Shown: positions 14,101 through 34,101 of the stretch, in pieces | How positions within the stretch are numbered: position 1 is the stretch's first letter | How the letters are laid out: every line of letters begins with the position of its first letter | Source: Chloroflexota bacterium | GTDB lineage: Bacteria > Chloroflexota > Anaerolineae > UBA1429 | Reading direction: 5' to 3' | Length of the DNA stretch: 64,000 bases | Assembly: GCA_019873625.1 (NCBI GenBank) | Contig: JAIOAW010000004.1 | Coordinates: 33,324 to 97,323, forward strand | Notes under the pieces: generated by a model | The model's database searches: none | What the model was told of the DNA's origin: nothing | The model's input: the letters and a program-made list of their open reading frames with translations, nothing else | Made by a program: the position numbers and the translations under genes

Positions 14101-14115
14101 TCGCCAAGTAACCAT

Positions 14116-14144: not shown

Positions 14145-14173
14145 AGATTCGTGGTCCTTGCGCCATTTTCCGC

Positions 14174-14202
14174 TTGCGCCTTTTGTGTGAGCGCCCTATA
14201 CT
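14174..14202 (+). promoter_or_regulatory. sigma70 promoter of the first cluster gene
   Basis: TTGCGC-17 nt-TATACT, back-to-back with the tRNA promoter. Confidence 0.6.
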
Positions 14203-14240
14203 GGAGGGTGAATGCCTTATCATCTCGTAAAGGAGCCGAA

Positions 14241-15317
14241 ATGAAGACTTTTAAGGTCGCGCTGGTTGGGGCGGGCACCATCGCCAAGGACCATTACCTT
14301 CCACAAATCAAGGCGATGGAGAACGCCGAGTTGGTGGCCGTGGCCGATAACGTCGAGGCCGCGGCGCGGTTTGCCGCCGAAAAGTTCGGCATCCCCCATT
14401 GGTTCACGCGCATTGACGACCTCCTCGATAAGGTGGATTGCGATATCGTGGTGGATACCGCCGCCATCCAGGCGCACTATGAGATCAACCTGAAGGCGCT
14501 TCAGGCGGGCAAACACCTCTATTCGCAAAAACCCCTGGCCCTTACCGTGGAAGAAGCCACCACCCTTATCGAGACGGCCAAAGCGAAGGGCCTCAAGATC
14601 AGCGCCTCGCCCATCCATATGCTGCGCCCCACGGTGCAGGCCATCCGCAAGATGGTGCGTGAGGGCGTCATCGGCAAGGTGCAGTGGGCGCGCATCCGCT
14701 CCTCGCACGGCGGGCCAGAGTATTATCAACGTTCGCGCCTCTCGGACCCCTCTTGGTTCTATCAGCCCGGCGCGGGGCCGATCTTTGACCTCGGCGTGCA
14801 TGGCCTGCACACCATCACGGGAATCCTTGGGCCAGCCAAGGCCGTTACCGCGATGTCGGGCATCACGGTGCCCACGCGGGCCGCGGTGGGTTGCGGCGGC
14901 GAGTACGAAGGCGTGCCCTTTGAAGTCAAGATTGACGATTGCAGCCTGGCCCTGCTCGACTTTGGCAACAACACCTTTGCCTTTATTGATATGACGTACT
15001 GCGTCAAAGATTACGAGGGGCCGAATTTGGAGATCTTTGGCAGCCGCGGCGTCATCAGCCAGACGCGCAAAGGAGGCTCCGCGACGCGCCTCTTCCGCGC
15101 GATGCCGGAGGATGGTGGCCCCGGTTGGGAAGAACCCCCTATGCCCGAGGAGCCGCGCTATCAATCCATCGGCGTCAAAGACCTGATAGATGCCATCATC
15201 GAGGGGCGTGACCCGGTGCTGACGCCCGAGCATGCCCGCCACGTCATCGAGATTATGAACAAGTGCTACCAGGCCGCGCGCGAACGCCGCACGTTGGATA
15301 TCGAGACGACGTTCTGA
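14241..15317 (+). CDS. Gfo/Idh/MocA-family oxidoreductase (#1)
   Basis: VGAGTIA Rossmann motif, GKHLYSQKPLA and GAGPIFDLGVHGL; AAGGAG RBS. Confidence 0.9.
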   Translation: MKTFKVALVGAGTIAKDHYLPQIKAMENAELVAVADNVEAAARFAAEKFGIPHWFTRIDDLLDKVDCDIVVDTAAIQAHYEINLKALQAGKHLYSQKPLALTVEEATTLIETAKAKGLKISASPIHMLRPTVQAIRKMVREGVIGKVQWARIRSSHGGPEYYQRSRLSDPSWFYQPGAGPIFDLGVHGLHTITGILGPAKAVTAMSGITVPTRAAVGCGGEYEGVPFEVKIDDCSLALLDFGNNTFAFIDMTYCVKDYEGPNLEIFGSRGVISQTRKGGSATRLFRAMPEDGGPGWEEPPMPEEPRYQSIGVKDLIDAIIEGRDPVLTPEHARHVIEIMNKCYQAARERRTLDIETTF

Positions 15318-15330
15318 CGCGTTGCATTGC

Positions 15331-15359
15331 TGGACAGGCATTTGCCCGTGAGGTAAGAT
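15331..15359 (+). promoter_or_regulatory. Putative internal sigma70 promoter
   Basis: TGGACA-17 nt-TAAGAT upstream of oxidoreductase #2. Confidence 0.5.
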
Positions 15360-15422
15360 ATCCCTTTGGGCGCGCCAAGCGGCGCGCCTACCCAATACTC
15401 GCCGCGCGCGGAAGGAGAGAAG

Positions 15423-16472
15423 ATGACTCAGCAAGTAGTTCGGGTGGGCATCGTAGGGATGGGCATCGGCAGGGCCAATGGTCGGGCCATTCAGGCCGAC
15501 CCGCGAGGTGAGGTCGTGGCCCTGTGCGACCTTATCCCCGAGAGGATGGAGGAATTCGCCAAAGAACTGCCGAGGCCGGTCAAGTTCTACACTGACTACA
15601 AAGCGATGTGCCAAGACCCCGATGTGGATGCCGTGATGGTGGGCACGCCGAACCAGTGGCATGTGCCCGTGGCCCTGGAGGCGGTGAAAAACGGCAAGCA
15701 CGTCCTCGTTACCAAGCCTTTGGCCGATTCGGAAGAGGCCGCCCGCGAACTCGTAGAGGCCGCAGAGGCCGCCGGCGTGGTGAATATGATGTCTCTGGGG
15801 ATGCGCTTTTCAGACCAGGTGATGTACCTGGAGGCCCTGCGCCAGCAAGGGTTCTTTGGCGAGTTGTACTATGCCCATGCCCGAGCCTTGCGCCGCAGTC
15901 GCATCCCCGATTGGAACCTGGGGTTCATCCAGAAAGGCGGTGGGGCCTTTCGCGATATGGGGGTGCACGTGCTCGATGCGTGCTGGTCGCTCTTGGGCAA
16001 GCCCAAGCCGGTGGCCGTGTTGGGCGTGGCCGGGGCCAAGTTCGGCCCGCGCGGCCTGGGGTATTGGGATTTTCGCCAGCCCAAGCCCGAATACTATACC
16101 CAATTCGCGGCTGATGATTACGGCGGAGGGTTCATCCTCTTTGAGGGGGGCCTGGGGATGCAGGTGGAATCCTTCTGGGCGGGCCACCACGAGCACATCG
16201 AGATGACGCAAATCGAACTCTTTGGCACGGAGGCCGGCGCCAAACTACGCCCGCTCACCCTCTACCGCACGGTGAACGGCGCGCCGCAGGATATCGTGGT
16301 GAACGTGCCCAAAAAGGCCGAGGGATTCAGCGAGGTGGCCAAGCACTTTATCGCCTGCATTCTGGATGGCATCCCCTGTGAGGCGCCTTTGCGCCACGGC
16401 CTCATCGTGCAGCAGATGATGGAGGCGCTCTTGAGGAGCGCGGAGACGGGCAAAGAGGTTCGTTTGGATTGA
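15423..16472 (+). CDS. Gfo/Idh/MocA-family oxidoreductase (#2)
   Basis: VGMGIG, GKHVLVTKPLA and GGGAFRDMGVHVLD; GGAG RBS. Confidence 0.9.
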   Translation: MTQQVVRVGIVGMGIGRANGRAIQADPRGEVVALCDLIPERMEEFAKELPRPVKFYTDYKAMCQDPDVDAVMVGTPNQWHVPVALEAVKNGKHVLVTKPLADSEEAARELVEAAEAAGVVNMMSLGMRFSDQVMYLEALRQQGFFGELYYAHARALRRSRIPDWNLGFIQKGGGAFRDMGVHVLDACWSLLGKPKPVAVLGVAGAKFGPRGLGYWDFRQPKPEYYTQFAADDYGGGFILFEGGLGMQVESFWAGHHEHIEMTQIELFGTEAGAKLRPLTLYRTVNGAPQDIVVNVPKKAEGFSEVAKHFIACILDGIPCEAPLRHGLIVQQMMEALLRSAETGKEVRLD

Positions 16473-16485
16473 TCACACGATGCGC

Positions 16486-16514
16486 TTGCCAAAGGTTGGC
16501 AAACGGCGCATACT
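16486..16514 (+). promoter_or_regulatory. Putative internal sigma70 promoter
   Basis: TTGCCA-17 nt-CATACT upstream of oxidoreductase #3. Confidence 0.45.
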
Positions 16515-16566
16515 GCGCGTTGCAAGCCCGCTTGGGCAAAATCTCTTTTAGGAGTGGGATGGCGAA

Positions 16567-17613
16567 ATGGACAAAGTGCGCGTGTGCATCGTAGGGATGG
16601 GCATTGGCCGGCCGAACGGCCGGGCCATCGCGGCGAACCCGCGCGGCGAGGTGACGGCGCTGTGCGACCTCATCCCCGAGAGAATGGAAGAGTTCGCCAA
16701 GGAACTGCCGGGGCCAGTCAAGTTCTATACCGACTACAAGGAGATGTGCCAGGACCCGGATATTGACGCGGTGTTCGTGGGGACGCCGAACCAGTGGCAT
16801 GTGCCCATCGCGCTGGAGGCCGTGAAGAACGGCAAGCACGTGATGGTTACCAAGCCCTTGGCCGATTCGGAAGGCGCGGCCAAGGAGTTGGTAGAGGCCG
16901 CGGAAGAGGCCGGCGTGGTGAATATGATGTCGCTCTCGATGCGTTTTTCGGACCAGGTGCAGTACCTGGGCAAACTGCGCACGCAGGGCTTTTACGGCGA
17001 CCTGTACTACGCCCACGCCCAGGCGCGCCGGCGCAGTCGCATCCCCGATTGGAACCTGGGGTTCATCGAAAAAGGCGGCGGGGCCTTCCGCGATATGGGG
17101 GTGCACGTGCTCGACTCCGTCTGGTGGCTTTTGGGGATGCCCAAGCCGGTGGCTGCTCTGGGGGTAGCCGGGGCCAAGTTCGGCCCGCGCGGCCTGGGGT
17201 ATTGGGATTTTCGCCAGCCCAAGCCCGAGTTCTATACCCGCTTTGCGGCCGATGACTATGGCGGAGGGTTCATCCTCTTTGAGAATGGCACGGGGCTGCA
17301 GGTGGAATCCTTCTGGGCGGGCCACCACGGCGAGATGGATGCGACGCAGATCGAACTCTTTGGCACGGAGGCCGGCGCCAAACTGCGCCCGCTCACCCTC
17401 TACCGCACGGTGAATAACGCGCCGCAGGATATCACGGTAACCCTGCCTGAGACCAAGCGCACCTCCTGGAATAACATCGCCGACCATTTCATCGCCTGCA
17501 TTCTGGATGGCATCCCCTGTGAGGCGCCTTTGCGGCACGGCCTCATCGTCCAGCGGATGATGGAGGCCATCCTCAAGAGCGGCGAGACGGGTAAAGAAGT
17601 GCGGTTGGATTGA
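16567..17613 (+). CDS. Gfo/Idh/MocA-family oxidoreductase (#3), close tandem paralog of #2
   Basis: Same motifs as #2 and long identical stretches at both protein and DNA level. Confidence 0.9.
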   Translation: MDKVRVCIVGMGIGRPNGRAIAANPRGEVTALCDLIPERMEEFAKELPGPVKFYTDYKEMCQDPDIDAVFVGTPNQWHVPIALEAVKNGKHVMVTKPLADSEGAAKELVEAAEEAGVVNMMSLSMRFSDQVQYLGKLRTQGFYGDLYYAHAQARRRSRIPDWNLGFIEKGGGAFRDMGVHVLDSVWWLLGMPKPVAALGVAGAKFGPRGLGYWDFRQPKPEFYTRFAADDYGGGFILFENGTGLQVESFWAGHHGEMDATQIELFGTEAGAKLRPLTLYRTVNNAPQDITVTLPETKRTSWNNIADHFIACILDGIPCEAPLRHGLIVQRMMEAILKSGETGKEVRLD

Positions 17614-17655
17614 CCTTTGACGCCTATATCTTGAAACACATAGGAGAGGGATACG

Positions 17656-18450
17656 ATGAAACTCGGGTTTATCGCTTCGAACGACCTCGACGGCCTCGAG
17701 GCGGATGCGAAATTTGCCGCCGAGAATGGCTTTGAGGGGTTGGAGTTCAACTACTGGGCGGCCTTTGCCGACTTAACGCCAGAGACCGTGGGCAAGATGG
17801 CCGCCATCCTCGATCGCTACGGCGTGGCTTGCTCTTCCTTCGGCCTGTGGGGCTGGAACCACACCGCCCCAGATCCGGCCGAGCGCGAGCGGAGTTTGCA
17901 GATGCTCGACCGGGCCATTACCTACGCGGCGGCGCTGCGGGCACCCATCTTTATCACGGGCGGCGGGCAGACGGGCGGCGACTTGGCCAGCAACGTCAAG
18001 GCCTTTTGCGAGGTCTTTCCGCCGTACATCGAAAAGATGGAAAAGAACGGGATGAAGTTCGCGGCCTATGCCGTGCACGGCAATTCCTTCTTTGAGAACA
18101 TCGAGTGCTACAAGGCCGTGTGGGAGAAATTCCCCAACGTGGGCATCAAACTCGACCCGCTCAACATCATCCACCACGGAGATGACCCCTACATCTGGCT
18201 GCGCGATTATGCCCACCGCGTGTATGAGGTGCACATCAAAGAGGGTATCTTTATGGATGGCAAACTCGTCTCTCAGCCGGCGGCGGGGATGGGAGATGTC
18301 CACTGGGGCAAGGTGATGGCCTTCCTCTATGAGGTCAATTATGACGGCTATCTGATTATGGAGCCGCACGGGCCTATCTGGAGCCGTGGGCCGATGAAGC
18401 GCAAGATGCTCCTTTTGAGCAAAAAGTACCTGAGCCAGTTCTTGCTGTAG
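17656..18450 (+). CDS. Sugar phosphate isomerase/epimerase (xylose-isomerase-like TIM barrel, AP_endonuc_2 family)
   Basis: GFEGLEF, IKLDPLNII, YEVHIKE, PAAGMGDVHWGKVMAFLYEVNYDGYLIMEPH metal-binding pattern. Confidence 0.85.
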   Translation: MKLGFIASNDLDGLEADAKFAAENGFEGLEFNYWAAFADLTPETVGKMAAILDRYGVACSSFGLWGWNHTAPDPAERERSLQMLDRAITYAAALRAPIFITGGGQTGGDLASNVKAFCEVFPPYIEKMEKNGMKFAAYAVHGNSFFENIECYKAVWEKFPNVGIKLDPLNIIHHGDDPYIWLRDYAHRVYEVHIKEGIFMDGKLVSQPAAGMGDVHWGKVMAFLYEVNYDGYLIMEPHGPIWSRGPMKRKMLLLSKKYLSQFLL

Positions 18451-18535
18451 ATCGGGGTGCAAACGTGGTGGCGGCCTAACGCCGCCCCCACGAGAGGAAT
18501 TCGCCTTCACCGCGTTGAAGAAAGGAAAGGACAAG

Positions 18536-19669
18536 ATGAGCAAGACCTATCGCCTTGGAGCCATCGGGTTCGCCCATATGCACATCAACCACCTGCTCGA
18601 TGAGTTCAACAAACTCCCGAACATCGAATGGGTGGCCTGTGCAGATAACACGCCCGCCGTGCCTTCACGGACGATGAAGCCCTCCGGCCGGCTGATGAAC
18701 CTCAAGTATGCCCATGAGACGATCGGCATCCCCAAGGTGTACGATTGCTACCATGAGATGCTTGAGAAGGAAAAGTTCGACATCATCATCTTCTGCCCCG
18801 AGAATGCCAAGCATGGCGAGGTGGCGGAGGCCATCGCCAAGGCCGGCGCGCATATGGTTACCGAAAAGCCGATGTCGGCTAGCCTTTCGGATGCGCTGCG
18901 TATGGTGCGCGCCTGCAAAAAGTACAAGGTGGAGTTGATGGTGAACTGGCCCACCACCTGGTCGCCCGCGGTGCGCAAGGCCAAGGAACTCATTGACTCG
19001 GGCATCATCGGCGATGTGTGGGAGGTCAAGTGGCGCAACGGGCCTTCGATGGGGCCGCTCTCCTACTCCACGGGCGACCAAGCCTGGCTGCCCGAGGAAA
19101 AGGGCGAGGAATGGTGGCACCAGGCCGCGCCGGGCGGCGGCGCCTTGCTGGACTATTGCTGCTACGGCGCGTGCCTTTCGCGGTGGTATATCGGCAAGCC
19201 CGCGGTGGCGGCCACGGCGATGAAGGCCAACTTCACCAGCCACTATGGCGATGCGGATGATAACGCCATCATCGTGGTGCGCTATCCGGAGGCGTTTACC
19301 ATCCTCGAGGCGACGTGGACCACCTGGCATACGGGCATCCCCACGGGGCCGATCATCTACGGCACCAAGGGTACCCTGGTGGTGACGAATATGGTCAAAG
19401 AGGGGCACCGCGTGCCGGTGGTGCAGGTATTCACCACGCGTGGCTACGGCTACGAGCCGGACCAGGTCGTGGAGGGCGATCCGTTGCCCGAGGGGCGCGC
19501 GACGCTGGCCGAGGAGTTCATCTACCACCTGGAGACGGGCGAGCCGTTGCACCCCACGCTGGAGATGATGCAGAACCTGCAAGTGATGGCCATTTTGGAT
19601 GCGGGCATCCGCTCTGCGGCCTCGGGCAAGGTGGAACTCGTCAACGACGCGAACTGGTGCATTGGCTAA
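18536..19669 (+). CDS. Gfo/Idh/MocA-family oxidoreductase (#4; DYCCY / C-terminal WCIG subgroup)
   Basis: IGFAHMH, HMVTEKPM, GGGALLDYCCYG; ends NDANWCIG. Confidence 0.88.
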   Translation: MSKTYRLGAIGFAHMHINHLLDEFNKLPNIEWVACADNTPAVPSRTMKPSGRLMNLKYAHETIGIPKVYDCYHEMLEKEKFDIIIFCPENAKHGEVAEAIAKAGAHMVTEKPMSASLSDALRMVRACKKYKVELMVNWPTTWSPAVRKAKELIDSGIIGDVWEVKWRNGPSMGPLSYSTGDQAWLPEEKGEEWWHQAAPGGGALLDYCCYGACLSRWYIGKPAVAATAMKANFTSHYGDADDNAIIVVRYPEAFTILEATWTTWHTGIPTGPIIYGTKGTLVVTNMVKEGHRVPVVQVFTTRGYGYEPDQVVEGDPLPEGRATLAEEFIYHLETGEPLHPTLEMMQNLQVMAILDAGIRSAASGKVELVNDANWCIG

Positions 19670-19704
19670 AGGATGCAAGGGCGGGTTCCCTGTGAGCCGC
19701 TGGC

Positions 19705-19733
19705 TTGACAAGGAACCCGCCTTCGCCTACAAT
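19705..19733 (+). promoter_or_regulatory. Consensus sigma70 promoter of the glycyl radical enzyme gene
   Basis: TTGACA-17 nt-TACAAT. Confidence 0.8.
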
Positions 19734-19734
19734 G

Positions 19735-19754
19735 CGATGTGAACGTTCACATCG
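19735..19754. promoter_or_regulatory. Perfect 20-bp palindromic operator at the predicted transcription start
   Basis: CGATGTGAACGTTCACATCG is its own reverse complement and starts 2 nt after the -10 box. The core TGTGAACGTTCACA resembles LacI-family operators. Confidence 0.75.
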
Positions 19755-19832
19755 AGAGCGGTTTGGGGGCGTTAGCAAAAGCGGCTACCCTTTACCGATG
19801 GGCACATTCGTATTACCGTTGGAGGCCTGATT

Positions 19833-22076
19833 ATGAGTGTAGAGACGACCGTGCAAGAAATCACCTATCAGATGCGCTTGGATTCGCTGCGCGAAACCAA
19901 GATGCGCCACACCCGCGAGAAGCAAGAGATCGTCGGTTCGATGGATCATGACGACTGGGCCTTGATCCTACCGCCGCCCGACCGGCGCAAGGTCGTCAAG
20001 ACGATTAGCACCTCGGGTATGCCGATCACCGATGTCCTCATCGAGGGGTACGAGCCGGTGCCCAACCACCCGAGCGGCGGGTTCTTTGGCCCCAAGGCCT
20101 GCGGCGAGAACTTTGGCGCGCTCTTGCGCGCTCACCCGCCCTATGTGGACCCCATGGCCTCGCTTTTGGGCGGGTACAACGTCAACTTTTCGTCGTACCG
20201 CAAGGTCCGCTGGAACCCCGATTTCGACTACTCGCACCTCCAGCCTTACATTGACAAGTACAAGTTGATCTCGGGCATCGGCGCCTCGCAGCATTTTTGC
20301 CAGGATCTCGAAATCGGCCTGAAACTGGGTTGGGGCGGCCTGCTGGATAAGATTCGCTTCTACCGCGCCCAGCACGGCCCCGAAAAGGCCGATTTCTACG
20401 ACGGCCTGGAGGCCATCGTCACCGGAATGCAGGCTTGGATCAAGACGAATGTGGATGAGGCCCGCCGCTTGGCCGAAAAAGAGGAAAACCCGCAACTGCG
20501 CGAGAACCTTCTCAAACTGGCCGATATGAACGAGCGCCTCATCACCGAGCCGCCGCAGACCTTCCATGAGGCCTGCCAGTGGATCGCCTGGTATCAGATG
20601 GCGGCCCGTATGTATAACGGAAGCGGCTCGTTGGGGCGGCTGGATGTCATCCTCCAGCCGTATTATGAGCGCGACGTGGCCGCCGGCATCTTGACGGATG
20701 AAGAGGCCATCTTCCACATCGCGAACATCCTCCTTCTGGATACGGCTTACATCCAGTTGGGCGGCCCCTTGCCCGATGGGCGCGACGCCACGAGCAAGGT
20801 CTCGTACTTGGTGCTCGAGGCGGCGCATCGCCTGCGCATCCCCGCCAATATCGGCGTAACCGTGGGGCCGAGCACAGACCCTGGCCTGCTCCGCCGCGGC
20901 GTGGAGATTATGTTCCAAGACCGGACGGGCATCCCCAAGTTCTTGGGCACCGATAACATCATCGAGGGCTTTGCCCGCAACGGGTATGACCTCTCGATGG
21001 CGCGCCAACGCGCTTATTCCGGCTGCCACTGGTTCGCCATCCCCGGCCGCGAGTACACCTTGAACGACTGCGTCAAGATCAACCTGGGCGCGGTGTTCGA
21101 GGTGGCCTGGGAAGAGATGATGCAGGATGTCTCCACGGCGAGCGTGGAGAAACTGTGGAACCTCTTCCAGTACCATCTCAAAGAGGCCATCAAGTGGTTG
21201 GCCCGCTGCCTAGACTTTCATATGGAGCATATGCATCAGGTCTTCCCCGAACTCGTGCTCGATCTCTTGTGCTATGGGCCGATCGAGCGCGGGGAGGATG
21301 CCTCGCACGGCGGGGTGGATTACTACAACCTCTGCGTGGATGGCGCGGCCTTGGCCACGGTTACCGATTCCTTTGCGGCGCTCGAGCAGCGCATCGAAAA
21401 GGAAAAGGTGATGACCTGGGAAGAGATCAAGCGCTATATCGAGACGAACTGGGCCGGCCCTGAAGGCGAACGCGCCCGGCTGATGATGCACAACATCCCG
21501 CGCTTTGGCTCCGGCGGATCTCGGGCCGATGAGTGGGCCGTCAAGATCACCGAGGTCTTTACGCGGCTCGTGAAAGAAAGCCCCACGCCGAACGGCTTCA
21601 ATATGATTCCGGGCTACTTCTCGTGGGCAAACACCATCCCTATGGGCAAGGTGCTCAAGGCCACGCCGAATGGCCGCCGCGCGGGCGAGCCGATTTCTCA
21701 TGGGGCGAACCCCGACCCCGGCTTTCGCAAAGACGGGGCGCCGAGCGCCATGGCCGTGGCCATCGCGAGCGTCCAGCCCGGCTGGGGCAACTCGGCCCCG
21801 ATGCAGATCGAACTTGACCCCGGCATCACGCGCGATGAGGAGGGCGTCGAGAATATCGCCAACCTCATCAAGGCCCATATGGACCTCGGCGGCACCCAGA
21901 TCAATATGAACGTGATGGATGCGGACAAGGTGCTGGAAGCGCATAAAGACCCCAGCAAATATCCCGACCTCGTGGTGCGGGTGACGGGCTTTAGCGCCTA
22001 CTTTGCCAGCCTCTCGCCCGAGTTCCGCCAACTCGTGGTTGATCGCATCATCCGCGAACGAGAGGCGTCGAGTTAG
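19833..22076 (+). CDS. Glycyl radical enzyme (PFL-like superfamily) of unknown specificity
   Basis: C-terminal radical domain YPDLVVRVTGFSAYF (Gly719), ATPNGRRAGEPISHGANP, SLGRLD..LQPYYERD, and Cys loop AYSGCHWF (Cys398). Confidence 0.92.
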   Translation: MSVETTVQEITYQMRLDSLRETKMRHTREKQEIVGSMDHDDWALILPPPDRRKVVKTISTSGMPITDVLIEGYEPVPNHPSGGFFGPKACGENFGALLRAHPPYVDPMASLLGGYNVNFSSYRKVRWNPDFDYSHLQPYIDKYKLISGIGASQHFCQDLEIGLKLGWGGLLDKIRFYRAQHGPEKADFYDGLEAIVTGMQAWIKTNVDEARRLAEKEENPQLRENLLKLADMNERLITEPPQTFHEACQWIAWYQMAARMYNGSGSLGRLDVILQPYYERDVAAGILTDEEAIFHIANILLLDTAYIQLGGPLPDGRDATSKVSYLVLEAAHRLRIPANIGVTVGPSTDPGLLRRGVEIMFQDRTGIPKFLGTDNIIEGFARNGYDLSMARQRAYSGCHWFAIPGREYTLNDCVKINLGAVFEVAWEEMMQDVSTASVEKLWNLFQYHLKEAIKWLARCLDFHMEHMHQVFPELVLDLLCYGPIERGEDASHGGVDYYNLCVDGAALATVTDSFAALEQRIEKEKVMTWEEIKRYIETNWAGPEGERARLMMHNIPRFGSGGSRADEWAVKITEVFTRLVKESPTPNGFNMIPGYFSWANTIPMGKVLKATPNGRRAGEPISHGANPDPGFRKDGAPSAMAVAIASVQPGWGNSAPMQIELDPGITRDEEGVENIANLIKAHMDLGGTQINMNVMDADKVLEAHKDPSKYPDLVVRVTGFSAYFASLSPEFRQLVVDRIIREREASS

Positions 22077-22081
22077 CACGT

Positions 22082-22121
22082 AATCCCCCTTGCGGGGCTT
22101 GACAAACCCGCAAGGGGGATT
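22082..22121. terminator. 15-bp perfect stem-loop after the GRE gene, with TTGACA in the loop
   Basis: AATCCCCCTTGCGGG-gcttgacaaa-CCCGCAAGGGGGATT. It may act as a terminator or RNA stabiliser and also as a promoter (CATTAT lies 17 nt after TTGACA). Confidence 0.6.
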
Positions 22122-22177
22122 CATTATTCTAACCAAGCACGTTTCGCGTGCTCCAAAACTGCTTTTAGGAGGGTATC

Positions 22178-23290: not shown

Positions 23291-23348
23291 GGCTCGCCCG
23301 CCCTGTGCGGGCGAGGTGCACACACAAGCAAGGGAAAGGAGTCTCGCT

Positions 23349-24476: not shown

Positions 24477-24598
24477 GCGCCTGTGGCTCGCCCTGTGAGA
24501 TGAGATGCGGTCACACCGGGGTGCCCCTCTAAAAGAGGGGCACCCGCCTGTAGGCTGAAATCAAGAATACCTCAATTCGCCCGTTTAGGAGAGGCATT

Positions 24599-25726: not shown

Positions 25727-25734
25727 GAAGGTAA

Positions 25735-25769
25735 GGGGCCTCGTAAAGGGATTCCCCTTACGAGGCCCC
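25735..25769. terminator. Stem-loop after oxidoreductase #7
   Basis: GGGGCCTCGTAA-agggattcccc-TTACGAGGCCCC inverted repeat; no U-tract. Confidence 0.45.
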
Positions 25770-25950
25770 CTGTGGGAGCCTAGGGAAGCGATTCCCTCTT
25801 TTTTGAAGCGAAAATTGCTTCGAGGCCAAACCTTTTCTGTGCGCATAGCCCCGGAGCGCGCTGTGTGGGGCCAAAATGGCCTTGCATTGCCCTTGGCCAA
25901 TCGAGTAAGATAGGCGTTGCGCGCCGAATCTCATCTTTGAGGAGGTGGGT

Positions 25951-27084
25951 ATGACCAAGACGTACCGCATCGGGGCCTTGGGGTTTGCCCAGGGTCACAT
26001 TTTTGGCTTTGTGCAATCTTTCCTGAGGCTCTCCAACGTAGCCATCGAGTGGGTGGCCTGCGCCGATACCGTCCCTCCCAAACCCTCGCTTCTTGGCCGC
26101 ACGGAGAAGGCCGTCAAGCGCTTTCAAGAACTCACGGGCTGCACACGCGCCTACGAGCGTTGGGAAGAGATGTTGGAAAAGGAACGCTTCGACATCATCA
26201 TTTCTTGCCCGGAAAATGCCCGTCACGGCGAGGTGGCTGAGGCGATCGCCGCCCACGGCGCCCATATGATCACGGAAAAGCCGATGGCCGCGAGCCTTGC
26301 GGATGCCCTGCGGATGGTGCGCGCCGCTCAGGCGAACAACGTCTCCGTGATGATCAACTGGCCCACGACGTGGAACCCGGCCGTGCGTAAGGCGAAGGAG
26401 TTGATTGACCAGGGTGTCATCGGCGAGGTGTGGGAGGTCAAGTGGCGCAACGGCGGCTCGATGGGGCCGCTCACCTATTCGGAGCCGGAGCCAAGCGGCC
26501 CTGAAAAGGGCGCGGAATGGTGGCACCAGGCGGCTCCGGGGGGTGGGGCGCTCTTGGATTACTGCTGTTATGGGGCCTGCCTGGCGCGGTGGTATTTGGG
26601 CCAGGGCGCTGTGGCGGCTTACGGCCTGCGCGCCAACATCACGAGCCACTATGGCGATGCGGATGATAACGCGGTCATCACCGTGCGCTTCCCCAAGGCG
26701 CTGGCCATCCTTGAGGCGACGTGGACGACCTGGAACGTCGGCGTGCCCACGGGGCCGATCATCTACGGCACACGGGGCGCTCTGGTGGTTACGCGCCCGC
26801 GTGGCGCACCGGAGGGGCAGGCGCGCCAAGTGGTGGAGGTCTACACCTCGCGGGCGCACGGCCTGGTCGAACCGGATGAGATCATCGTGCCGGATCCCTT
26901 GCCTGAGGGGCGCGCCACCCTTGCGGAGGAATTCATCCATCATCTGGAGACGGGCGAGCCTCTGCACCCCACGCTCGATATGATGTTCAACCTAGAGGTG
27001 CAGGCCATTTTGGATGCGGGCATCCGTTCGGCGCAAAGCGGCCGGCTCGAACTCGTGAACAACGCCACCTGGTGCATCGGCTGA
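25951..27084 (+). CDS. Gfo/Idh/MocA-family oxidoreductase (#8; DYCCY/WCIG subgroup, closest to #4)
   Basis: LGFAQGH, HMITEKPM, GGGALLDYCCYG; ends NNATWCIG. GAGGAGG RBS; TTGCAT-18-TAAGAT promoter-like sequence at 25882-25911. Confidence 0.88.
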   Translation: MTKTYRIGALGFAQGHIFGFVQSFLRLSNVAIEWVACADTVPPKPSLLGRTEKAVKRFQELTGCTRAYERWEEMLEKERFDIIISCPENARHGEVAEAIAAHGAHMITEKPMAASLADALRMVRAAQANNVSVMINWPTTWNPAVRKAKELIDQGVIGEVWEVKWRNGGSMGPLTYSEPEPSGPEKGAEWWHQAAPGGGALLDYCCYGACLARWYLGQGAVAAYGLRANITSHYGDADDNAVITVRFPKALAILEATWTTWNVGVPTGPIIYGTRGALVVTRPRGAPEGQARQVVEVYTSRAHGLVEPDEIIVPDPLPEGRATLAEEFIHHLETGEPLHPTLDMMFNLEVQAILDAGIRSAQSGRLELVNNATWCIG

Positions 27085-27114
27085 GAATCCTTAGGGGGGA
27101 GCGCTTTTCCATCT

Positions 27115-28632
27115 ATGACCAAGGCCCAAGGAGCACACGAATTCTCTTCTGGCGATAAACGGTACCTACTGGCCCTCGATATCGGTTCCACCACGGTGCG
27201 AGCCGTCCTGTTTAATGTGGAAGGGTTGCCTGTGGCGGAGGCCTACCGGGAGCCTCCGGTGCATTACCCCGGCGCGAACCGCGCTGAGATTGACGTCACG
27301 CTGCGTTGGGAGGCCTCGGTGGAGGTCATCCGCGAGGTGCTGGCCAAGTCGGCCATTTCGCCGGCGGAGATTGCGGCCATCGGCCTGACGGGCCTTCTCC
27401 ACGCGCTGACGCCCATTGACCGCGAAGGCCGCCCTTTGGCGCGGGCTATGCTGTGGATGGATCAACGCTGCCAGCCCCAGGTGGAGTGGATGGTGCGCGA
27501 ACACGCGGATATCCTGGAGCGCGAGGTCGGCTCCACGCGGGCCAGCACCACGTGGTCTGCCCCGAAATTGCGCTGGATTTACGAGCACCAGCCGGACCTT
27601 CTTGAGCGCACCTACAAATTTATGCCCACGAAGGATTACATTCGCTTTCGCCTGACGGGGACGATCGAGACGGATCCCTCCGAGGCGGGCGGCACGATGC
27701 TCTTTAACCGGGAGACGGGCGATTGGTCTCGCCCGATGCTCGAACTGGTGGGCGTGCCCTTGGAAAAGATGCCCGTCATCAAGCCCTCTTCCACCGTGGT
27801 GGGCGGCGTTACGCGCGAGGCGGCCTTGGCCACCGGCCTGCAAGAGGGCACGCCGGTGGTCATCGGCGGGGGAGATACCAAGTGCACTCGCCTGGGCGCG
27901 AACAGTGAGGGAAACGGCCGCGCTTGCCTTTATATCGGCACGGCGGCCTGGACGGCGGTGCCCTCCCGCCGGCGCCAGGCCTTTGGGGCCACGGCCACCA
28001 CGGGCGCCGCGCTCAAGTGGATTACCTCTGTGGTGGGGCTGAACGATCCTTCCTCGCCCGGCGAGGGGTATGCGCAACTCTTGGCTGAGGCAGAGCGCGT
28101 GCCTTCCGGCGCGGGGGGGCTTCTTTTCTTGCCCCACCTGATGGGCGAGCGCGGCCCCCAGCCGAACGCCAAGGCCACGGGCACCTTTTTCGGGCTGACC
28201 TTGGGCCACGGCCGTGCCGAACTGGCCCGGGCCGTGCTGGAGGGGTGCGCCTTTCATCTGCGCTCCATCTTGGAAAACATCAGCGAGGTGCCCATTGAAG
28301 AGATGACCCTCGTCGGGGGCGGAGCCAAGAGCGCCCTTTGGCGGCAGATCATCGCCGATGTGACGGGCATTCGCCTCTTGGTGCCCCGCGTTTTGGAGGC
28401 CGGCGCGCTGGGCGCGGCCATTCTGGCAGGGGTGGGTGTGGGCATTTACCCCAGCGAGCAGGAGGCGGCGGATCGCGTCGTCCAGTTCGTCGAACGGCGC
28501 GAACCGGATGCGGAACGGCACGCCTTCTACAGCCAAATCTACCCCTATTATCTCGACCTGGAAGCGCGCGTCGCGCCGCTCTATGGGCAAATTCCGATGA
28601 AGATGCGAGAGGAGGAAGTACCATGCGCGTAA
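27115..28632 (+). CDS. FGGY-family carbohydrate kinase (xylulokinase-like)
   Basis: LALDIGSTTVRA, AMLWMDQR, KLRWIYEHQPD, TDPSEAGGTMLF, LFLPHLMGERGP, ARAVLEG, VGGGAKSALWRQIIADV. Confidence 0.92.
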   Translation: MTKAQGAHEFSSGDKRYLLALDIGSTTVRAVLFNVEGLPVAEAYREPPVHYPGANRAEIDVTLRWEASVEVIREVLAKSAISPAEIAAIGLTGLLHALTPIDREGRPLARAMLWMDQRCQPQVEWMVREHADILEREVGSTRASTTWSAPKLRWIYEHQPDLLERTYKFMPTKDYIRFRLTGTIETDPSEAGGTMLFNRETGDWSRPMLELVGVPLEKMPVIKPSSTVVGGVTREAALATGLQEGTPVVIGGGDTKCTRLGANSEGNGRACLYIGTAAWTAVPSRRRQAFGATATTGAALKWITSVVGLNDPSSPGEGYAQLLAEAERVPSGAGGLLFLPHLMGERGPQPNAKATGTFFGLTLGHGRAELARAVLEGCAFHLRSILENISEVPIEEMTLVGGGAKSALWRQIIADVTGIRLLVPRVLEAGALGAAILAGVGVGIYPSEQEAADRVVQFVERREPDAERHAFYSQIYPYYLDLEARVAPLYGQIPMKMREEEVPCA

Positions 28633-29600
28633 TTGCCATTGTGAACGGCTATACGGGGGCACTCTGCCTGCAAGAGTTGGTGGATCAGGGTGATGAGGTG
28701 GTGGCCGTGGTAACAAGCCCCGGCGACCCCAGGCCCGGCGCCGACCCCAAGACCTCGGTCAAGTTGACGGCCGACCGCAACTTTTTGCCGGTCTATCAGC
28801 CGCCCATCACCGAGGTGAACAACCCGCAGTTCGTCGAAAAACTGCGCAAGTTAGAACCGGACCTCATCGTCTCGATGCACTATGCGCAAATCTTTAAAGA
28901 GCCGCTCTTGAAGCTCCCCAAACTCGGATGCGTCAATGAGCATCCCTCGCGCCTGCCGGCGGGCCAGGGGATGACGCCCTCTTACTGGCATATGATCATC
29001 GGCGATGATCGCAACTGGATTACCCTGCATTACCTCGACCCCGGCATTGATACGGGCGACATCATCGCCCAGGGGTCCGTGGAGATCACCCCCGACGATA
29101 CGGGGATGACTACGAGCCGCAAACTCTCGGAAGAGGGGCACCGCATCTTTGCCGAGAACCTGCCGCTCATCCGTGAGGGGCGGGCGCCGCGCATCCCGCA
29201 AAAGGAGTGGGGCAGGATGCACGGCATCAAACGGAGTTACGTCTCTTGGAAGCCTCACCACGCCTGTATGGATTGGGGCAAATCGGCCAAGATGTTGGCG
29301 CTCCATGTGCGCACGCTGACCATCCCACGCGGGCAGACCACGTGGGTGGGGCCGGCCTATACCTTCTTGGGCGGCAAAAAGGTTACCGTGTATAGCGCCC
29401 AAGTGCTGGAGGACCCCCGCTGGTGCCCGAAAGAGGCAACGCCGGGCGAGGTGCTGGGCCTAGGCGGAGGCGGCCTGCTGGTGATGACGGGCGAAGGAAT
29501 CTTGCAGATTAGCGATGCGGATATCGAGGGGGCCGAGGGCCAAGGGCTGGCCGGCCTTCTGCCTTACCTTTCGACCACCCTGCCCATTCGTTTGGGGTAA
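28623..29600 (+). CDS. Formyltransferase of the Fmt/ArnA-N type, probably not the initiator-tRNA Fmt
   Basis: VNEHPSRLPAGQGMTPSYW (variant of NxHPSLLPxxRG), LHYLDPGIDTGDII and a C-terminal Fmt_C-like domain. The start overlaps the kinase stop. Confidence 0.8.
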   Translation: MRVIAIVNGYTGALCLQELVDQGDEVVAVVTSPGDPRPGADPKTSVKLTADRNFLPVYQPPITEVNNPQFVEKLRKLEPDLIVSMHYAQIFKEPLLKLPKLGCVNEHPSRLPAGQGMTPSYWHMIIGDDRNWITLHYLDPGIDTGDIIAQGSVEITPDDTGMTTSRKLSEEGHRIFAENLPLIREGRAPRIPQKEWGRMHGIKRSYVSWKPHHACMDWGKSAKMLALHVRTLTIPRGQTTWVGPAYTFLGGKKVTVYSAQVLEDPRWCPKEATPGEVLGLGGGGLLVMTGEGILQISDADIEGAEGQGLAGLLPYLSTTLPIRLG

Positions 29601-29637
29601 GCGCGTTCTGCGCATTTTGTTAAAGAGGAGATGAGCG

Positions 29638-30693
29638 ATGAAAGCGGCGTTGTTTTATGGCGGCAAAGACATTCGCGTGGGCGAAGTGCCCACCCCCAAG
29701 CCGGGGCCGGGCGAGGTGCTCGTGCGCGTGTTGGCGGCGGGCATCTGCGGGAGCGACCTGCACGGCTATCGTGACCCCAGCCGCGCGATGGGCCGCGAGG
29801 TGCCCTACCTTTCTGGGCATGAGTTGGCCGGCGTGGTGGCCGAGGTGGGCGAGGGGGTTACGAACGTCCAAGTGGGCCAGCGCGTAGGCGTGGAGCCGGG
29901 GCACCTCTTGGGCTGCGGCAAGTGCCGCTACTGCCTGCGGGGAGATTACCAATTGTGCCCGGAAATCGGCATCGTGAACGGCAAGCGCGTCCATTCCACG
30001 GGGTTTGCCGAATATTCCCTTGAGAAGGCGCACAAGGTCTATCCCTTGCCCGATCACGTGGTGATGGAAGAGGCGGCCATCCTCGATGTGTACGCCTGCG
30101 CCGTGCATGCCCTGCACCTGGCGCCCGTTACCCCGGTGGATTACGTGGCCGTGCAGGGGGCCGGGCCGATCGGCCTCACGGCGGCGGAACTCTTCCGCTA
30201 CGGCGGGGCGAAGGATGTCATCATCCTGGATGTGCTCGATTCCTCGCTCGAGGCGGCCAAGAAGATGGGCTTCACCTCCTTGGTCAACAGTGCCAAGGTG
30301 GATCCCGTGGAGGCCGTGATGGACCTCACCGAGGGCCACGGCGCCACAGTGGTGGTGGAGGCCGTAGGCGGCAACGCGCCCACCTTTGAGACGGATTGCA
30401 AAATCGTGGGGCGCGGCGGGCAAATCCTCGTCATCGGGATGTTCGCCAAGCCGCAGAGCCTGGATATGCGCCTCCTCCAGCGCAAAGAGGGGATGGTGCA
30501 CCTGGCCTGGAGTTACGGCCTATGGCAGGGCGTGCCCGAGTTCAAGATCGCGCTCGACCTGCTCGCGGCCGGCAAACTGCGCGCGGCGGATTACATCACG
30601 CACACCTTCCCGCTCGACCAAATCGCCGAGGGGTTCGCCGCGGCAGATAACAAGGCGCAGTCCGGCGCCATCAAAGTGGTCATCAAACCCTAG
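29638..30693 (+). CDS. Zn-dependent medium-chain dehydrogenase (threonine/sorbitol DH-like)
   Basis: GICGSDLH, GHELAG, CGKCRYC..GDYQLC structural Zn site, QGAGPIG. Confidence 0.92.
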   Translation: MKAALFYGGKDIRVGEVPTPKPGPGEVLVRVLAAGICGSDLHGYRDPSRAMGREVPYLSGHELAGVVAEVGEGVTNVQVGQRVGVEPGHLLGCGKCRYCLRGDYQLCPEIGIVNGKRVHSTGFAEYSLEKAHKVYPLPDHVVMEEAAILDVYACAVHALHLAPVTPVDYVAVQGAGPIGLTAAELFRYGGAKDVIILDVLDSSLEAAKKMGFTSLVNSAKVDPVEAVMDLTEGHGATVVVEAVGGNAPTFETDCKIVGRGGQILVIGMFAKPQSLDMRLLQRKEGMVHLAWSYGLWQGVPEFKIALDLLAAGKLRAADYITHTFPLDQIAEGFAAADNKAQSGAIKVVIKP

Positions 30694-30807
30694 CCGGCCT
30701 TTGGACGGCGGGGTTGATGAAAGGGTATCGGGGGCGCAGGCCTGAGGGGCCTGCCTTGCCGGGGCATCCCGCGCAAGCCACATTTCGCATCAGAAGAGAG
30801 GTGCACA

Positions 30808-31887
30808 ATGAAAAAGATCGGAGTCGGCGTACTCGGGTGTGGGGTGATCTCCAACAGCACGTATCTCCCCGCCATCAGCAAGATGGAGAAGGCCAACCTC
30901 GTGGCCGTGTGCGATATGGTGCCCGAACGAGCGCAATCCGCCGCGGCCAAGTTCGGCGTGCCCAAGGTCTATACTGACCTGGACAAGTTCTTGGCCGATC
31001 CGGAAATCGAACTCGTCGTCAACCTGACGCACATCCAGGCCCACTTTGAGACGAACCTGGCGGCGCTCCAGGCGGGCAAGCACGTCTACAGCGAAAAGAC
31101 GATGACGGTTACCGTGGAGGAGGCCACCACGCTCATCGAAGAGGCTAAGAAGCGCGGCCTGAAACTGGGCGCGGCGGCGGCCACGATGCTCAGCCCGGTG
31201 AACATCAAGGTCAAGAGCCTCATCCAGAGCGGGGCCATCGGCCGGGTGTGCTACGTCACGGGGCGGCATTCGCACTTTGGCGCGGCCGATTTTGAGCCGT
31301 GGTCCACCGACCCTACCTGGTTCTTCAAGCCCGGCGCGGGGCCCATCTTGGATATGGGGGTGTACGGCCTGCACAGTTACACGGGCATCCTCGGCCCGGT
31401 GAAGCGCGTGGCCTGTATGTCGGGCATTTCGGTGCCCAAGCGCAGGGTGCGCAGCGGCCCGGTGGCCGGCAAGGTGATTGACGTCGAGATTGACGACAAC
31501 TCGCAAATCCTTATGGATTTCGGCAACAACACCTTCGGCTTCCTCGATGCCACCTATTGCGCCAAGGCCGCCAAAGGCCCGCGGATGACCTTCTATGGCG
31601 ATGAGGGTGTGATCACCGTGAACGACTATGGCGACCCGCACCCCATCTCGCTCTTCCGCGACGACCGCGACCGCTTCGGCTACCAGGGCTGGACGGAGAT
31701 TGACCTGCCGCGCGGGGCCACGTGGGGCCTGCCGATGGGCGTGGAGCACCTCATCGAGTGCATCCTCGACCCCTCCAAGCCGATCATCACGAGCGCCGAG
31801 CATGCGCGGCACGTCATCGAGTTGATGAACAAGTGCTACGTGGCCGCCCGCGAGGGGCGCACCATCGAACTGGAGACCACCTTCTAG
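30808..31887 (+). CDS. Gfo/Idh/MocA-family oxidoreductase (#9), paralog of #1
   Basis: LGCGVIS, GKHVYSEKTM, GAGPILDMGVYGL. Shares TDP.WF..PGAGP and the C-terminal AEHARHVIE.MNKCY..ARE.RT...ETTF with #1. Confidence 0.9.
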   Translation: MKKIGVGVLGCGVISNSTYLPAISKMEKANLVAVCDMVPERAQSAAAKFGVPKVYTDLDKFLADPEIELVVNLTHIQAHFETNLAALQAGKHVYSEKTMTVTVEEATTLIEEAKKRGLKLGAAAATMLSPVNIKVKSLIQSGAIGRVCYVTGRHSHFGAADFEPWSTDPTWFFKPGAGPILDMGVYGLHSYTGILGPVKRVACMSGISVPKRRVRSGPVAGKVIDVEIDDNSQILMDFGNNTFGFLDATYCAKAAKGPRMTFYGDEGVITVNDYGDPHPISLFRDDRDRFGYQGWTEIDLPRGATWGLPMGVEHLIECILDPSKPIITSAEHARHVIELMNKCYVAAREGRTIELETTF

Positions 31888-31968
31888 GGTGCTGCACGCT
31901 GGGGCAGGCCGCTCGAGCGGCCTGCCCCACAGAACGCATTGCGAAATCTTTCAGAAGAGGCTTATACC

Positions 31969-33012
31969 ATGGCTGGGAAAACTCTGCGCATGGGCATTGC
32001 GGGTATGGTGAACGACCATATCTGGTTTATGGCCGATGCCCTCCACGCGCTCCCCAACGTCGAACTCGTCAGCGCGGCCGAACCCTATGAGGAACTGCGC
32101 CAGAGGGCCGTCGAGCGCTACGGCGTCAAAACGACCTATGCCTCCTACGAAGAGATGCTCGATAAAGAGCAACTCGATGCCATCGTCGTCTGCAGCGATA
32201 ACGCCTCCAAATCCAAAATCGTGGCCGCCGCGGCCAAGCACGGCGTGCACTGCTATGTGGATAAGGCGATGAGCGCCTTCCTCCATCAGGCGGATGAGAT
32301 GATCGCCGCGGCCAAGGAGGGGGGCATCAAGGTGATGATCGCCTACCATCCCTACTTTTCCACCGCTTACAAGAAGGCCAAGGCGTGGATTCAAGGCGGG
32401 CAGATCGGCCAGGTCTATCTCGCCAAGGCCTCCATCGGCCACGCCGGGCCGCGCGAGATCAACCTCTCCAAGTATTTCTGCGAATGGCTGGAGAGCAAGG
32501 AGCGCGGCGGGGGTGGCGTTTTTGTGGACGAGGCCTGCTACTCTATCGCTACCTTTACGGACTACCTGGGGCCGATCACCGAGGTGTGCGCCTTTATGAC
32601 CCAGCAGGGCTGGCGCGATTACCTGCCGCCCGATGTGGAGGATAACTCGGTGGCCATCTTGAAATTTGCGAGCGGCGCCCTGGGCGTGATTGACGCCAAG
32701 TGGGGGCAGATCGGCCGCCCGCCGTATAGCAACTCTTACCACGGCACGGATGGCACGCTCCTCACGGGCTGGGATTCTTTGCGCATCTATACGCGCAAAG
32801 GGGTGCCCAAAGAGTTGGAAGGGTGGATTGAGATCCCCGTGATGCGCGAGCCGCGCGGCGTGGGCGAGGCCTCTTATTTTGTCGAGACGATCCTCTCCGG
32901 CGGAGACTTTACGGGCGTCATCGGCCTGGAGGGAGCGCGCGCCGTGCAAGAGGTCATCGAGGCGTGCTACCTCTCCGCCCAGCGGGGGGAGATCGTCAAA
33001 CTGCCGCTCTAG
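31969..33012 (+). CDS. Gfo/Idh/MocA-family oxidoreductase (#10)
   Basis: GIAGMVNDH, VHCYVDKAM and GGGVFVDEACYS. Confidence 0.85.
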   Translation: MAGKTLRMGIAGMVNDHIWFMADALHALPNVELVSAAEPYEELRQRAVERYGVKTTYASYEEMLDKEQLDAIVVCSDNASKSKIVAAAAKHGVHCYVDKAMSAFLHQADEMIAAAKEGGIKVMIAYHPYFSTAYKKAKAWIQGGQIGQVYLAKASIGHAGPREINLSKYFCEWLESKERGGGGVFVDEACYSIATFTDYLGPITEVCAFMTQQGWRDYLPPDVEDNSVAILKFASGALGVIDAKWGQIGRPPYSNSYHGTDGTLLTGWDSLRIYTRKGVPKELEGWIEIPVMREPRGVGEASYFVETILSGGDFTGVIGLEGARAVQEVIEACYLSAQRGEIVKLPL

Positions 33013-33072
33013 AGTCGAGTCAAAACTTGGGGCGCTCAACGATGGGCGCCCCACGGAAAGGAAAGAGATACG

Positions 33073-34101
33073 ATGGCCGAGATGATGAAGGCAGCGCTCT
33101 TGTACGCCGCGGGAGACCTACGCGTGGGCGAAGCGCCCCGCCCAGAGATCACCCATCCCGATGACGTCCTTATCCGCGTGCGCGCCTGCGGCATTTGCCC
33201 CAGCGACCTGCGCGCTTATACGGGTGTGCGCAGTGGTATGCGCGAGATGCCCTATACGCCAGGCCACGAATGGGCCGGCGAGGTGGTGGCCGTGGGCGAG
33301 GCGGTCAAAAGCGTCCAGGTGGGCGACCGGGTGGTGCCCAGTTGGCGGGTGGTGTGCGGCAAGTGCTACTATTGCACCCGTGGCCTCTACAACTATTGCG
33401 AGAACCTCCAGCGGCGCGTGCGCGGCGGGTTCGCCCAATACGGCGTGGCCGCGGAGGAGAGCCTTTTAAAGATTCCCGATCACGTCTCGTATTACGAGGC
33501 GAGTTTCTGCGAGCCGCTGGCCTGCTGCATCAACGGCAGTTTGTGGAGTATGATCGGGTTTGGCGATGATGTGGTCATCGTGGGGGCGGGGCCGATCGGC
33601 CTGATGCACCTGCAATTGGCCAAAATCCAGGGGGCGCGCGTCATTGTGAGCGAGTTCCTCGAAGAGCGCCTGGCCAAGGCCAAGGAATTGGGCGCCGACG
33701 AGGTGATCTGCGCGGCCAAAGAGGACCCCGTGGCGCGCGTGAAGGAATTGACCCAGGGGCGCGGGGCGAACGTCGTCATCGTGGCCGTGGGGGCGCCCAA
33801 GGCGCTCCAGCAGGCGCTGGAGATGACGGCCATCGGCGCCTCGGTGAACTATTTTGCGGGCACCTACCCGCCCACGACCATCCCCCTCGACCCGAACGTG
33901 ATTCACTATAAGCAGATTCGGCTCACCGGCAGCCATGACTACACGCCTCAGCACTTCCGCAGTGCGCTGCGGTTCATCTCGCTGGGGATGGTGCGCGTGA
34001 TGCCGCTCATCAGCCACATCCTGCCGCTGGAGCAGGTGAAAGAGGGGTTCGATATCGTGGCGGGCCAAAAGGGCCTGAAGGTGATGATTGATACGGAATA
34101 A
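33073..34101 (+). CDS. Zn-dependent medium-chain dehydrogenase
   Basis: GICPSDL, GHEWAG, CGKCYYC..GLYNYC, EPLACC, VGAGPIG. Confidence 0.92.
   Translation: MAEMMKAALLYAAGDLRVGEAPRPEITHPDDVLIRVRACGICPSDLRAYTGVRSGMREMPYTPGHEWAGEVVAVGEAVKSVQVGDRVVPSWRVVCGKCYYCTRGLYNYCENLQRRVRGGFAQYGVAAEESLLKIPDHVSYYEASFCEPLACCINGSLWSMIGFGDDVVIVGAGPIGLMHLQLAKIQGARVIVSEFLEERLAKAKELGADEVICAAKEDPVARVKELTQGRGANVVIVAVGAPKALQQALEMTAIGASVNYFAGTYPPTTIPLDPNVIHYKQIRLTGSHDYTPQHFRSALRFISLGMVRVMPLISHILPLEQVKEGFDIVAGQKGLKVMIDTE

Follow-up and report, generated by a model that had tools for sequence, protein, structure and literature searches.

What does a glycyl radical enzyme (GRE) do among ten dehydrogenases of the Gfo/Idh/MocA family, and do such genes form a single pathway? 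This question is raised by a stretch of 64,000 nucleotides (referred to here as the window) on contig JAIOAW010000004.1 of the Chloroflexota bacterium assembly GCA_019873625.1, a metagenome-assembled genome (MAG) of an uncultured anaerobe of the class Anaerolineae that is 2.76 Mb in size and 97.6% complete. GREs are oxygen-sensitive enzymes behind some of the most demanding reactions of anaerobic metabolism, and newly assigned GRE classes have each exposed a new pathway, as for choline, hydroxyproline, isethionate and anhydro-sugars. An earlier note, made from the sequence alone, had proposed a pathway of ten dehydrogenases built around an orphan GRE. The present analysis concludes that the window holds a real, undescribed, sugar-linked GRE system. 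The explanation favoured here, with restrained confidence, is a catabolic carbohydrate/glycoside island made of reusable units, in which a trans-activated and co-repressed GRE with a C-x-W cysteine loop takes part in a sugar pathway.

The cluster itself is well defined. Pfam scans find 16 consecutive plus-strand genes at window positions 14241–34101, comprising ten Gfo/Idh/MocA oxidoreductases, one xylose-isomerase-like TIM barrel, one GRE, one FGGY kinase, one formyltransferase and two Zn-dehydrogenases, so that the gene inventory of the earlier note is borne out in families and strand alike. Start codons were refined, also against the independent gene calls of a sister assembly; the unrefined open reading frames (ORFs) span 14151–34101. 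Genome-wide there are 41 Gfo genes, and sampled 20-kb windows with at least five of them are attributed to the present cluster. Ten Gfo genes in one 20-kb window, compared with 79% of random draws of that size containing none, therefore mark a real hotspot. Mis-assembly is ruled out because gene order is identical in two independent assemblies that carry a 98%-identical GRE.

The GRE gene (19833–22076, plus strand) encodes a protein of 747 amino acids with a PFL-like domain (311 bits) and a Gly_radical domain (57 bits). Its glycine loop, RVTG719FS (in full RVTG719FSAYF), contains the RVxG motif found in 93 of the 95 collected relatives, the other two having been missed by the regular expression. 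The cysteine loop reads YSGC398HW. Cys398 aligns with the catalytic cysteine of PflD and HpsG, and in the same alignments Trp400 stands at the position of the C-x-E glutamate. This C-H-W loop is present in 88 of the 95 relatives, and C-N-W occurs in a clade of paralogues at 50% identity, which includes a second copy in the same genome on contig C3. A further conserved motif, QH154FCQD, places His154 in register with the conserved histidine of the canonical G-C-V-E GRE of the genome, which we take to correspond to His164 of glycerol dehydratase (GDH), its general-acid histidine. By its sequence, this protein is complete and belongs to an uncharacterized C-x-W branch.

This places the enzyme outside every characterized class. 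All characterized GRE eliminases and isomerases keep C-x-E, many clades are still unassigned, and the glutamate of this motif acts as a general base that deprotonates the C2 hydroxyl in YbiW and PflD (2026 review, PMC13450708). The window GRE has G-C-H-W in place of the C-x-E of the 1,2-eliminases and isomerases. Formate lyases (PFL, TdcE) are distinguished by a Cys-Cys pair, and the enzyme has a single cysteine and reaches 105 bits with TIGR01255 against a cut-off of 994. The PflD/YbiW equivalog PRK09983 gives 233 bits against a cut-off of 1109, and every other NCBIfam cut-off is likewise missed. PflD is the best match by sequence (1e-59) and by fold (TM score 0.67, 24% identity), though all classes score alike, with TM scores of 0.62–0.69 across the GRE structures compared. 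The AlphaFold model, whose pLDDT falls below 50 at the Cys and Gly loops, was used solely to confirm the fold.

The analogy drawn by the earlier note with YbiW and PflD therefore fails at the defining glutamate. These isomerases (PDB 8yjo, 8id0, 8id7) ring-open 1,5-anhydromannitol-6-P/1,5-anhydroglucitol-6-P, and they share with the window GRE the fold, the Gly and Cys loops and a sugar-related context that includes a kinase. Unlike them, it carries C-H-W, is only 24% identical to PflD, is shorter, and begins with 150 residues that are specific to its family and highly conserved. A similar comparison applies to the GRE 1,2-eliminases, namely the B12-independent glycerol/propanediol dehydratases, CutC, HypD, IslA and HpsG. 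These have the same fold and the same requirement for a radical-SAM activase of the PFL-AE type, whereas the window enzyme lacks their catalytic glutamate and reaches none of their equivalog cut-offs.

The C-x-W branch is large and conserved, and it lacks the defining residue of all known eliminases and isomerases. Among 8,000 candidates scored, at least 2,400 sequence clusters (90% identity) belong to it, and conservation at 62–75% identity extends over Chloroflexota, Bacillota, Bacteroidota, Armatimonadota, Planctomycetota and an archaeal MAG. Its members are routinely mislabelled as pyruvate formate-lyase, and genomes in the host's family carry up to seven copies from the branch. The second copy of the branch in the present genome (C3:43885–46236, minus strand) is 50% identical to the first, with a G-C-N-W cysteine loop and an RVTGYS glycine loop; no activase or Gfo gene turned up in the roughly 10 kb around it. 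In a different genome, a gfo4-type dehydrogenase has another non-canonical GRE 2.7 kb away (L223, 13769–16102, G041:C1), whose cysteine loop, A-G-C-S-Q, may represent a further unassigned variant.

The way in which the GRE gene is controlled separates it from its neighbours. A promoter of its own, TTGACA-17-TACAAT, precedes the gene and scores highest among the promoter matches of the 20 kb; after this promoter comes the perfect palindrome GATGTGAACGTTCACATC, a LacI/cre-type operator (promoter and operator together 19705–19753, plus strand). A stable hairpin after the preceding dehydrogenase gene gfo4 (19675–19721, plus strand; −35 kcal/mol, z −4.8) overlaps the −35 box, and a hairpin with a perfect 15-bp stem follows the GRE stop codon (22082–22127, plus strand; −31 kcal/mol, z −6.0). 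Within the latter hairpin, upstream of gfo5, is another promoter-like site, TTGACA-17-CATTAT. The exact 14-mer TGTGAACGTTCACA, a CG-centred palindrome, occurs three times in the 2.76-Mb genome, where about 0.01 occurrences are expected. The sites lie at C4:53061 before the GRE, at C8:29903 before a GRE activase gene, and at C21:42806 before an operon that consists of a LacI-family gene (LacI and Peripla_BP domains), a Zn-dependent dehydrogenase gene and a CitMHS transporter gene, and each of them overlaps a −10 box. The activase (C8:28898–29899) is the only one in the genome above the TIGR02494 cut-off (357 bits against 174).

Because of this promoter, the shared operator and the bracketing hairpins, the GRE is best regarded as a separate transcription unit that belongs to a dispersed regulon with the activase. 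The operator sequence predicts that a LacI-family regulator binds at, and controls, the GRE, the activase and the C21 operon alike. Several statements of the earlier note have to be adjusted for this reason. The idea that the cluster is built around the GRE is weakened, since insulating hairpins and a separate promoter and operator speak against a single operon. The term orphan is correct within the window, which contains no activase, and incorrect for the genome, in which the C8 activase carries the same exact operator. Similarly, the absence of a regulator is literally true of the cluster genes, yet the GRE promoter has a LacI-type operator and a histidine kinase gene lies directly downstream of the cluster. 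The operator was sought in other genomes and is absent from them; therefore, the regulon is lineage-specific. In relatives that carry the enzyme module described below, the upstream Gfo gene and the GRE are likewise separated by a hairpin and a promoter. The genome has a single activase and three GREs, so one activase may serve all three. The third of these is the canonical G-C-V-E enzyme (C8:42316–44679), 13 kb from the activase, with a gfo1/gfo9-like Gfo gene between them; within this region (C8:25760–44679) the activase adjoins a gene for a Cys-type sulfatase.

The ten dehydrogenases are an aggregate and not a single design, because they consist of conserved two-gene pairs plus recent duplicates (gfo2 and gfo7). 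All of them were assigned by Pfam and lie on the plus strand. In each pair, one member is a canonical Gfo/Idh/MocA enzyme and the other belongs to a separate subfamily, here called gfo6-type. The gfo6-type members gfo4 (18536–19669), gfo6 (23349–24476), gfo7 (24599–25726) and gfo8 (25951–27084) are 56–80% identical, gfo7 being a duplicate of gfo6 at 80%. Among the remaining genes, gfo2 (15423–16472) is a tandem duplicate of gfo3 (16567–17613) at 83% identity, gfo1 (14241–15317) and gfo9 (30808–31887) are 48% identical, and gfo5 (22178–23290) and gfo10 (about 31969–33012) are singletons. Only gfo5 and gfo6 are directly adjacent as a pair in the window. The TIM barrel gene (AP_endonuc_2; 17656–18450, plus strand), whose product is remote from all solved structures, separates gfo3 from gfo4, and the kinase, formyltransferase and first Zn-dehydrogenase genes separate gfo8 from gfo9. 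The three pairs recur elsewhere: gfo5+gfo6 are adjacent in 11 other loci (L098, L190–L196, L206–L208), gfo3+gfo4 are adjacent in 7 loci of related genomes (L197, L199, L213, L215, L217, L221, L222), and gfo8+gfo9 are adjacent in 2 related loci (L198, L224). Pairs are also found without a GRE, as in a locus that carries two canonical Gfo genes, then a gfo6-type gene and a pair of TIM barrels, and the earlier view of the ten dehydrogenases as one set is weakened. Within the genome, the gfo4/6/7/8 type, gfo10 and the formyltransferase are confined to the cluster.

By sequence match, gfo5 is DgpA-like, aligning over its full length with the C-glycoside 3-oxidoreductase DgpA (PDB 7xr9; residues 4–360, 2.4e-61, 211 bits), though it reaches no curated NCBIfam model. 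The gfo6-type enzymes are far from every solved structure, with a best match of 52 bits. None of the cluster's Gfo proteins comes near the NCBIfam cut-offs for glycoside 3-dehydrogenases, all of these models scoring far lower.

Whether GRE and dehydrogenases belong together was examined from both sides. Among 80 genome loci of GRE homologues, surveyed over a 10-kb neighbourhood, 37 have an adjacent activase and 14 have a Gfo gene, compared with a background of 21%; an FGGY kinase is found in three and a formyltransferase in two. Further genes that recur nearby encode URO-D-like proteins, MR_MLE enzymes, an aldo-keto reductase, GH20, GH116, sugar ABC transporters and a fructosamine kinase. Starting from the dehydrogenases, 32 gfo6-type loci were collected in 19 of 401 genomes of the class. 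Six of the 32 have a C-x-W GRE within 10 kb, where roughly 2% are expected; three have a GRE activase alone, and two have another class of GRE. The background level on the GRE side and the excess on the dehydrogenase side together indicate that the linkage is real but facultative.

Two arrangements recur. In the first, a GRE, with or without its activase, precedes the DgpA-like gfo5 and gfo6, and this order is found in at least four lineages. It reads GRE-activase-gfo5-gfo6 in L192 and L193 (family f44) and GRE-gfo5-gfo6 in L208 (family f3) and in the window. L098 has the order Gfo-Gfo-TIM-x-gfo5-gfo6-TIM-x-x-GRE-activase-split transketolase-FGGY, in which the two ORFs before the GRE have no Pfam matches. 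In the second arrangement, a module of gfo6-type gene, GRE, FGGY kinase, formyltransferase (Fmt), Zn-dehydrogenase, Gfo, Zn-dehydrogenase and TIM barrel is shared by at least three genomes. L057 and L138 have the full order gfo6type-GRE-FGGY-Fmt-ADH1-gfo10-ADH2-TIM-CobD/CbiB-like, and L136 follows it from the gfo6-type gene to the formyltransferase, where its contig ends. Every module gene is 48–68% identical between the window and L138/L057, the GRE being 62% identical. FastTree splits the window GRE from the clade of module GREs, although monophyly is not rejected by the approximately unbiased (AU) test (p 0.52). Additionally, in genus g20 (L199, L215, L217) an activase lies about 3 kb upstream of gfo3-gfo4, with the C-x-W GRE of the genome located elsewhere; the ORFs between activase and gfo3 have no Pfam matches.

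The co-occurrence considered in the earlier note is consequently supported in part. The gfo5+gfo6 pair, gfo6-type genes, the FGGY kinase, the formyltransferase, both Zn-dehydrogenases and the TIM barrel do recur beside GREs in other lineages, but there is no enrichment of Gfo genes across the GRE family, and the kinase and formyltransferase are found in few genomes.

The other module enzymes give partial indications of chemistry. The FGGY carbohydrate kinase (27115–28632, plus strand) is xylulokinase-like, scoring 319 bits against XylB TIGR01312, under the 380-bit cut-off. Its gene is predicted to be translationally coupled to that of the ArnA-N/Fmt-like formyltransferase (28623–29600, plus strand), the start codon of which overlaps the kinase stop codon. 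The formyltransferase has both Formyl_trans_N and Formyl_trans_C domains and keeps the Asn-His-Asp triad, in the motifs N-E-H-P-S and G-I-D-T-G-D, when compared with the motifs of E. coli Fmt; it reaches no NCBIfam equivalog cut-off. Contexts of its distant homologues (37–44% identity) were also considered and proved heterogeneous and uninformative. The Zn-dependent dehydrogenase ADH1 (29638–30693, plus strand) resembles polyol and threonine dehydrogenases, and ADH2 (33073–34101, plus strand) resembles IolM/Tdh while remaining under the cut-offs. In L057 (1056–2108) and L138 (19257–20189) the module ends with a gene for a CobD/CbiB-family membrane protein (a weak Pfam match of 44–46 bits), which is missing from the window.

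These elements can be combined into a working explanation. The island would have been assembled from the dehydrogenase pairs gfo3+gfo4, gfo5+gfo6 and gfo8+gfo9, with the duplicates gfo2 and gfo7 adding to the count, and from a second unit, the conserved module of gfo6-type gene, GRE, FGGY kinase, formyltransferase, Zn-dehydrogenase, gfo10 and Zn-dehydrogenase. The GRE would be transcribed alone and activated in trans by the single activase on another contig, and one shared operator would co-repress the GRE, the activase and the LacI/Zn-dehydrogenase/CitMHS-transporter operon. A DgpA-like pair may oxidize the ring of a sugar, glycoside or cyclitol, typically at C3, and the TIM-barrel enzymes may isomerize or eliminate. 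The GRE would then carry out radical C-O or C-C cleavage, or isomerization, of a sugar-derived intermediate without a glutamate base. Its proposed active site keeps His154 and has Trp400 in place of the glutamate, with Trp400 predicted to point into the pocket, as loop residue i+2 does in known structures. The kinase, together with the split transketolase in L098, would feed the product into central metabolism. Because this GRE branch lacks the usual catalytic glutamate, the island may represent a step of anaerobic sugar breakdown that has yet to be described. A bolder extension, put forward tentatively and held to be less probable than the explanation above, is that C-x-W GREs form a further mechanistic class, which acts with a DgpA-like/gfo6-type pair on keto sugars or glycosides through glutamate-independent radical C-O/C-C cleavage or epimerization. 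The island would then be its most elaborate version, with product capture by the kinase and folate-dependent formyl transfer.

Several observations weigh against the favoured explanation. The 66 of 80 GRE-family loci that have no Gfo gene within 10 kb correspond to the genomic background, and the closest GRE relatives (74–75%) occur in unrelated contexts. Gfo pairs are common without a GRE, and in G002 and G024, two genomes with such pairs, nothing matched the GRE at E ≤ 1e-50. No substrate, transporter or hydrolase was identified within the window. Active-site geometry is derived from alignment alone, since the structure model is poor at both loops. Moreover, no other cluster gene carries the 14-mer operator, so co-induction of GRE and dehydrogenases is not indicated. 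The separate regulon of the GRE keeps one rival serious, although it is considered doubtful: the GRE may be a passenger in a dehydrogenase-rich island, with its true partners in its own regulon, among them the CitMHS-type organic-anion transporter, and an imported organic or sugar acid as substrate, unrelated to the flanking Gfo genes. The individual promoter and operator and the flanking hairpins fit this idea, as do the restriction of the operator to the activase and the C21 operon besides the GRE, the lack of Gfo enrichment in the family as a whole, and the recurrence of MR_MLE sugar-acid enzymes, aldo-keto reductase and URO-D-like proteins as GRE neighbours. It is opposed by the adjacency of gfo5+gfo6 or gfo6-type genes in families f1, f3 and f44 and in a Chloroflexia MAG, by the conservation of the entire module at similar divergence, and by a search near other GRE loci that found no homologues of the C21 genes, whether dehydrogenase, CitMHS transporter or LacI.

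The scheme of the earlier note, in which dehydrogenases funnel diverse sugars to one anhydro-sugar or polyol that is phosphorylated by the FGGY kinase and ring-opened by the GRE in the manner of YbiW and PflD, now appears improbable. Although PflD is the best match in sequence and fold, the kinase belongs to the module, and relatives of the Gfo proteins include 1,5-anhydrofructose reductase as well as DgpA, tryptophan replaces the C-x-E glutamate in every family member found, the identity and score with PflD are low, and a kinase is adjacent in only three of the 80 GRE loci. Still less credence is given to a biosynthetic cluster whose product would be a sugar or cyclitol, N-formylated or modified in another way, destined for the cell envelope. 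An ArnA-like formyltransferase with an intact catalytic triad would suit such a role, and so would the YfhO-type membrane protein encoded upstream of the cluster and the PKD/DUF11 surface proteins that adjoin the module in L057 and L138. However, no version of the cluster contains an aminotransferase, a nucleotidyltransferase or a glycosyltransferase, and the GH2 gene also present in L138, the split transketolase and the kinases of relatives are typical of catabolism.

Set beside described pathways, the island differs in its combination of enzymes. The C-glycoside deglycosylation pathway of DgpA/DgpBC and the pathways that pair a glycoside 3-dehydrogenase with a TIM-barrel lyase (levoglucosan, BT2157-2160, YcjQRS) similarly join Gfo enzymes, xylose-isomerase-like TIM barrels and Zn-dehydrogenases; unlike the island, they have no GRE, formyltransferase or gfo6-type partner. 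In the literature searched, no paper was found on a GRE with Gfo, DgpA or xylose isomerase, in agreement with the earlier note, which knew of no described pathway of this kind. The GRE superfamily is known, and its C-x-W branch, the loop and the dehydrogenase partnership are undescribed in that literature. The system offers experimental handles, namely a candidate activase revealed by the shared operator, a DgpA-like pair that recurs beside the GRE, and a candidate LacI repressor, the ligand of which should reveal the substrate. Since Anaerolineae are abundant in digesters and sediments, the pathway could be relevant to how carbon is turned over without oxygen.

The genes that flank the cluster are housekeeping or unrelated ones, including aspS, rnc, smc, the gene for the YfhO-type protein, the histidine kinase gene, hrcA-dnaK and nrdDG. 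Directly upstream and divergent lies an ORF of 622 amino acids (12257–14125, minus strand) with no Pfam match. The histidine kinase, a hybrid type encoded at 34309–36861 on the minus strand, converges on the cluster end and contains an N-terminal SBP_bac_3/phosphonate-binding-like domain followed by PAS, HisKA, HATPase and receiver domains. Further along the window (47273–54789, plus strand), a Metallophos (Mre11-like) gene and a Rad50-like SMC gene with a zinc hook are followed by further genes, an arrangement that resembles an archaeal-style end-resection operon.

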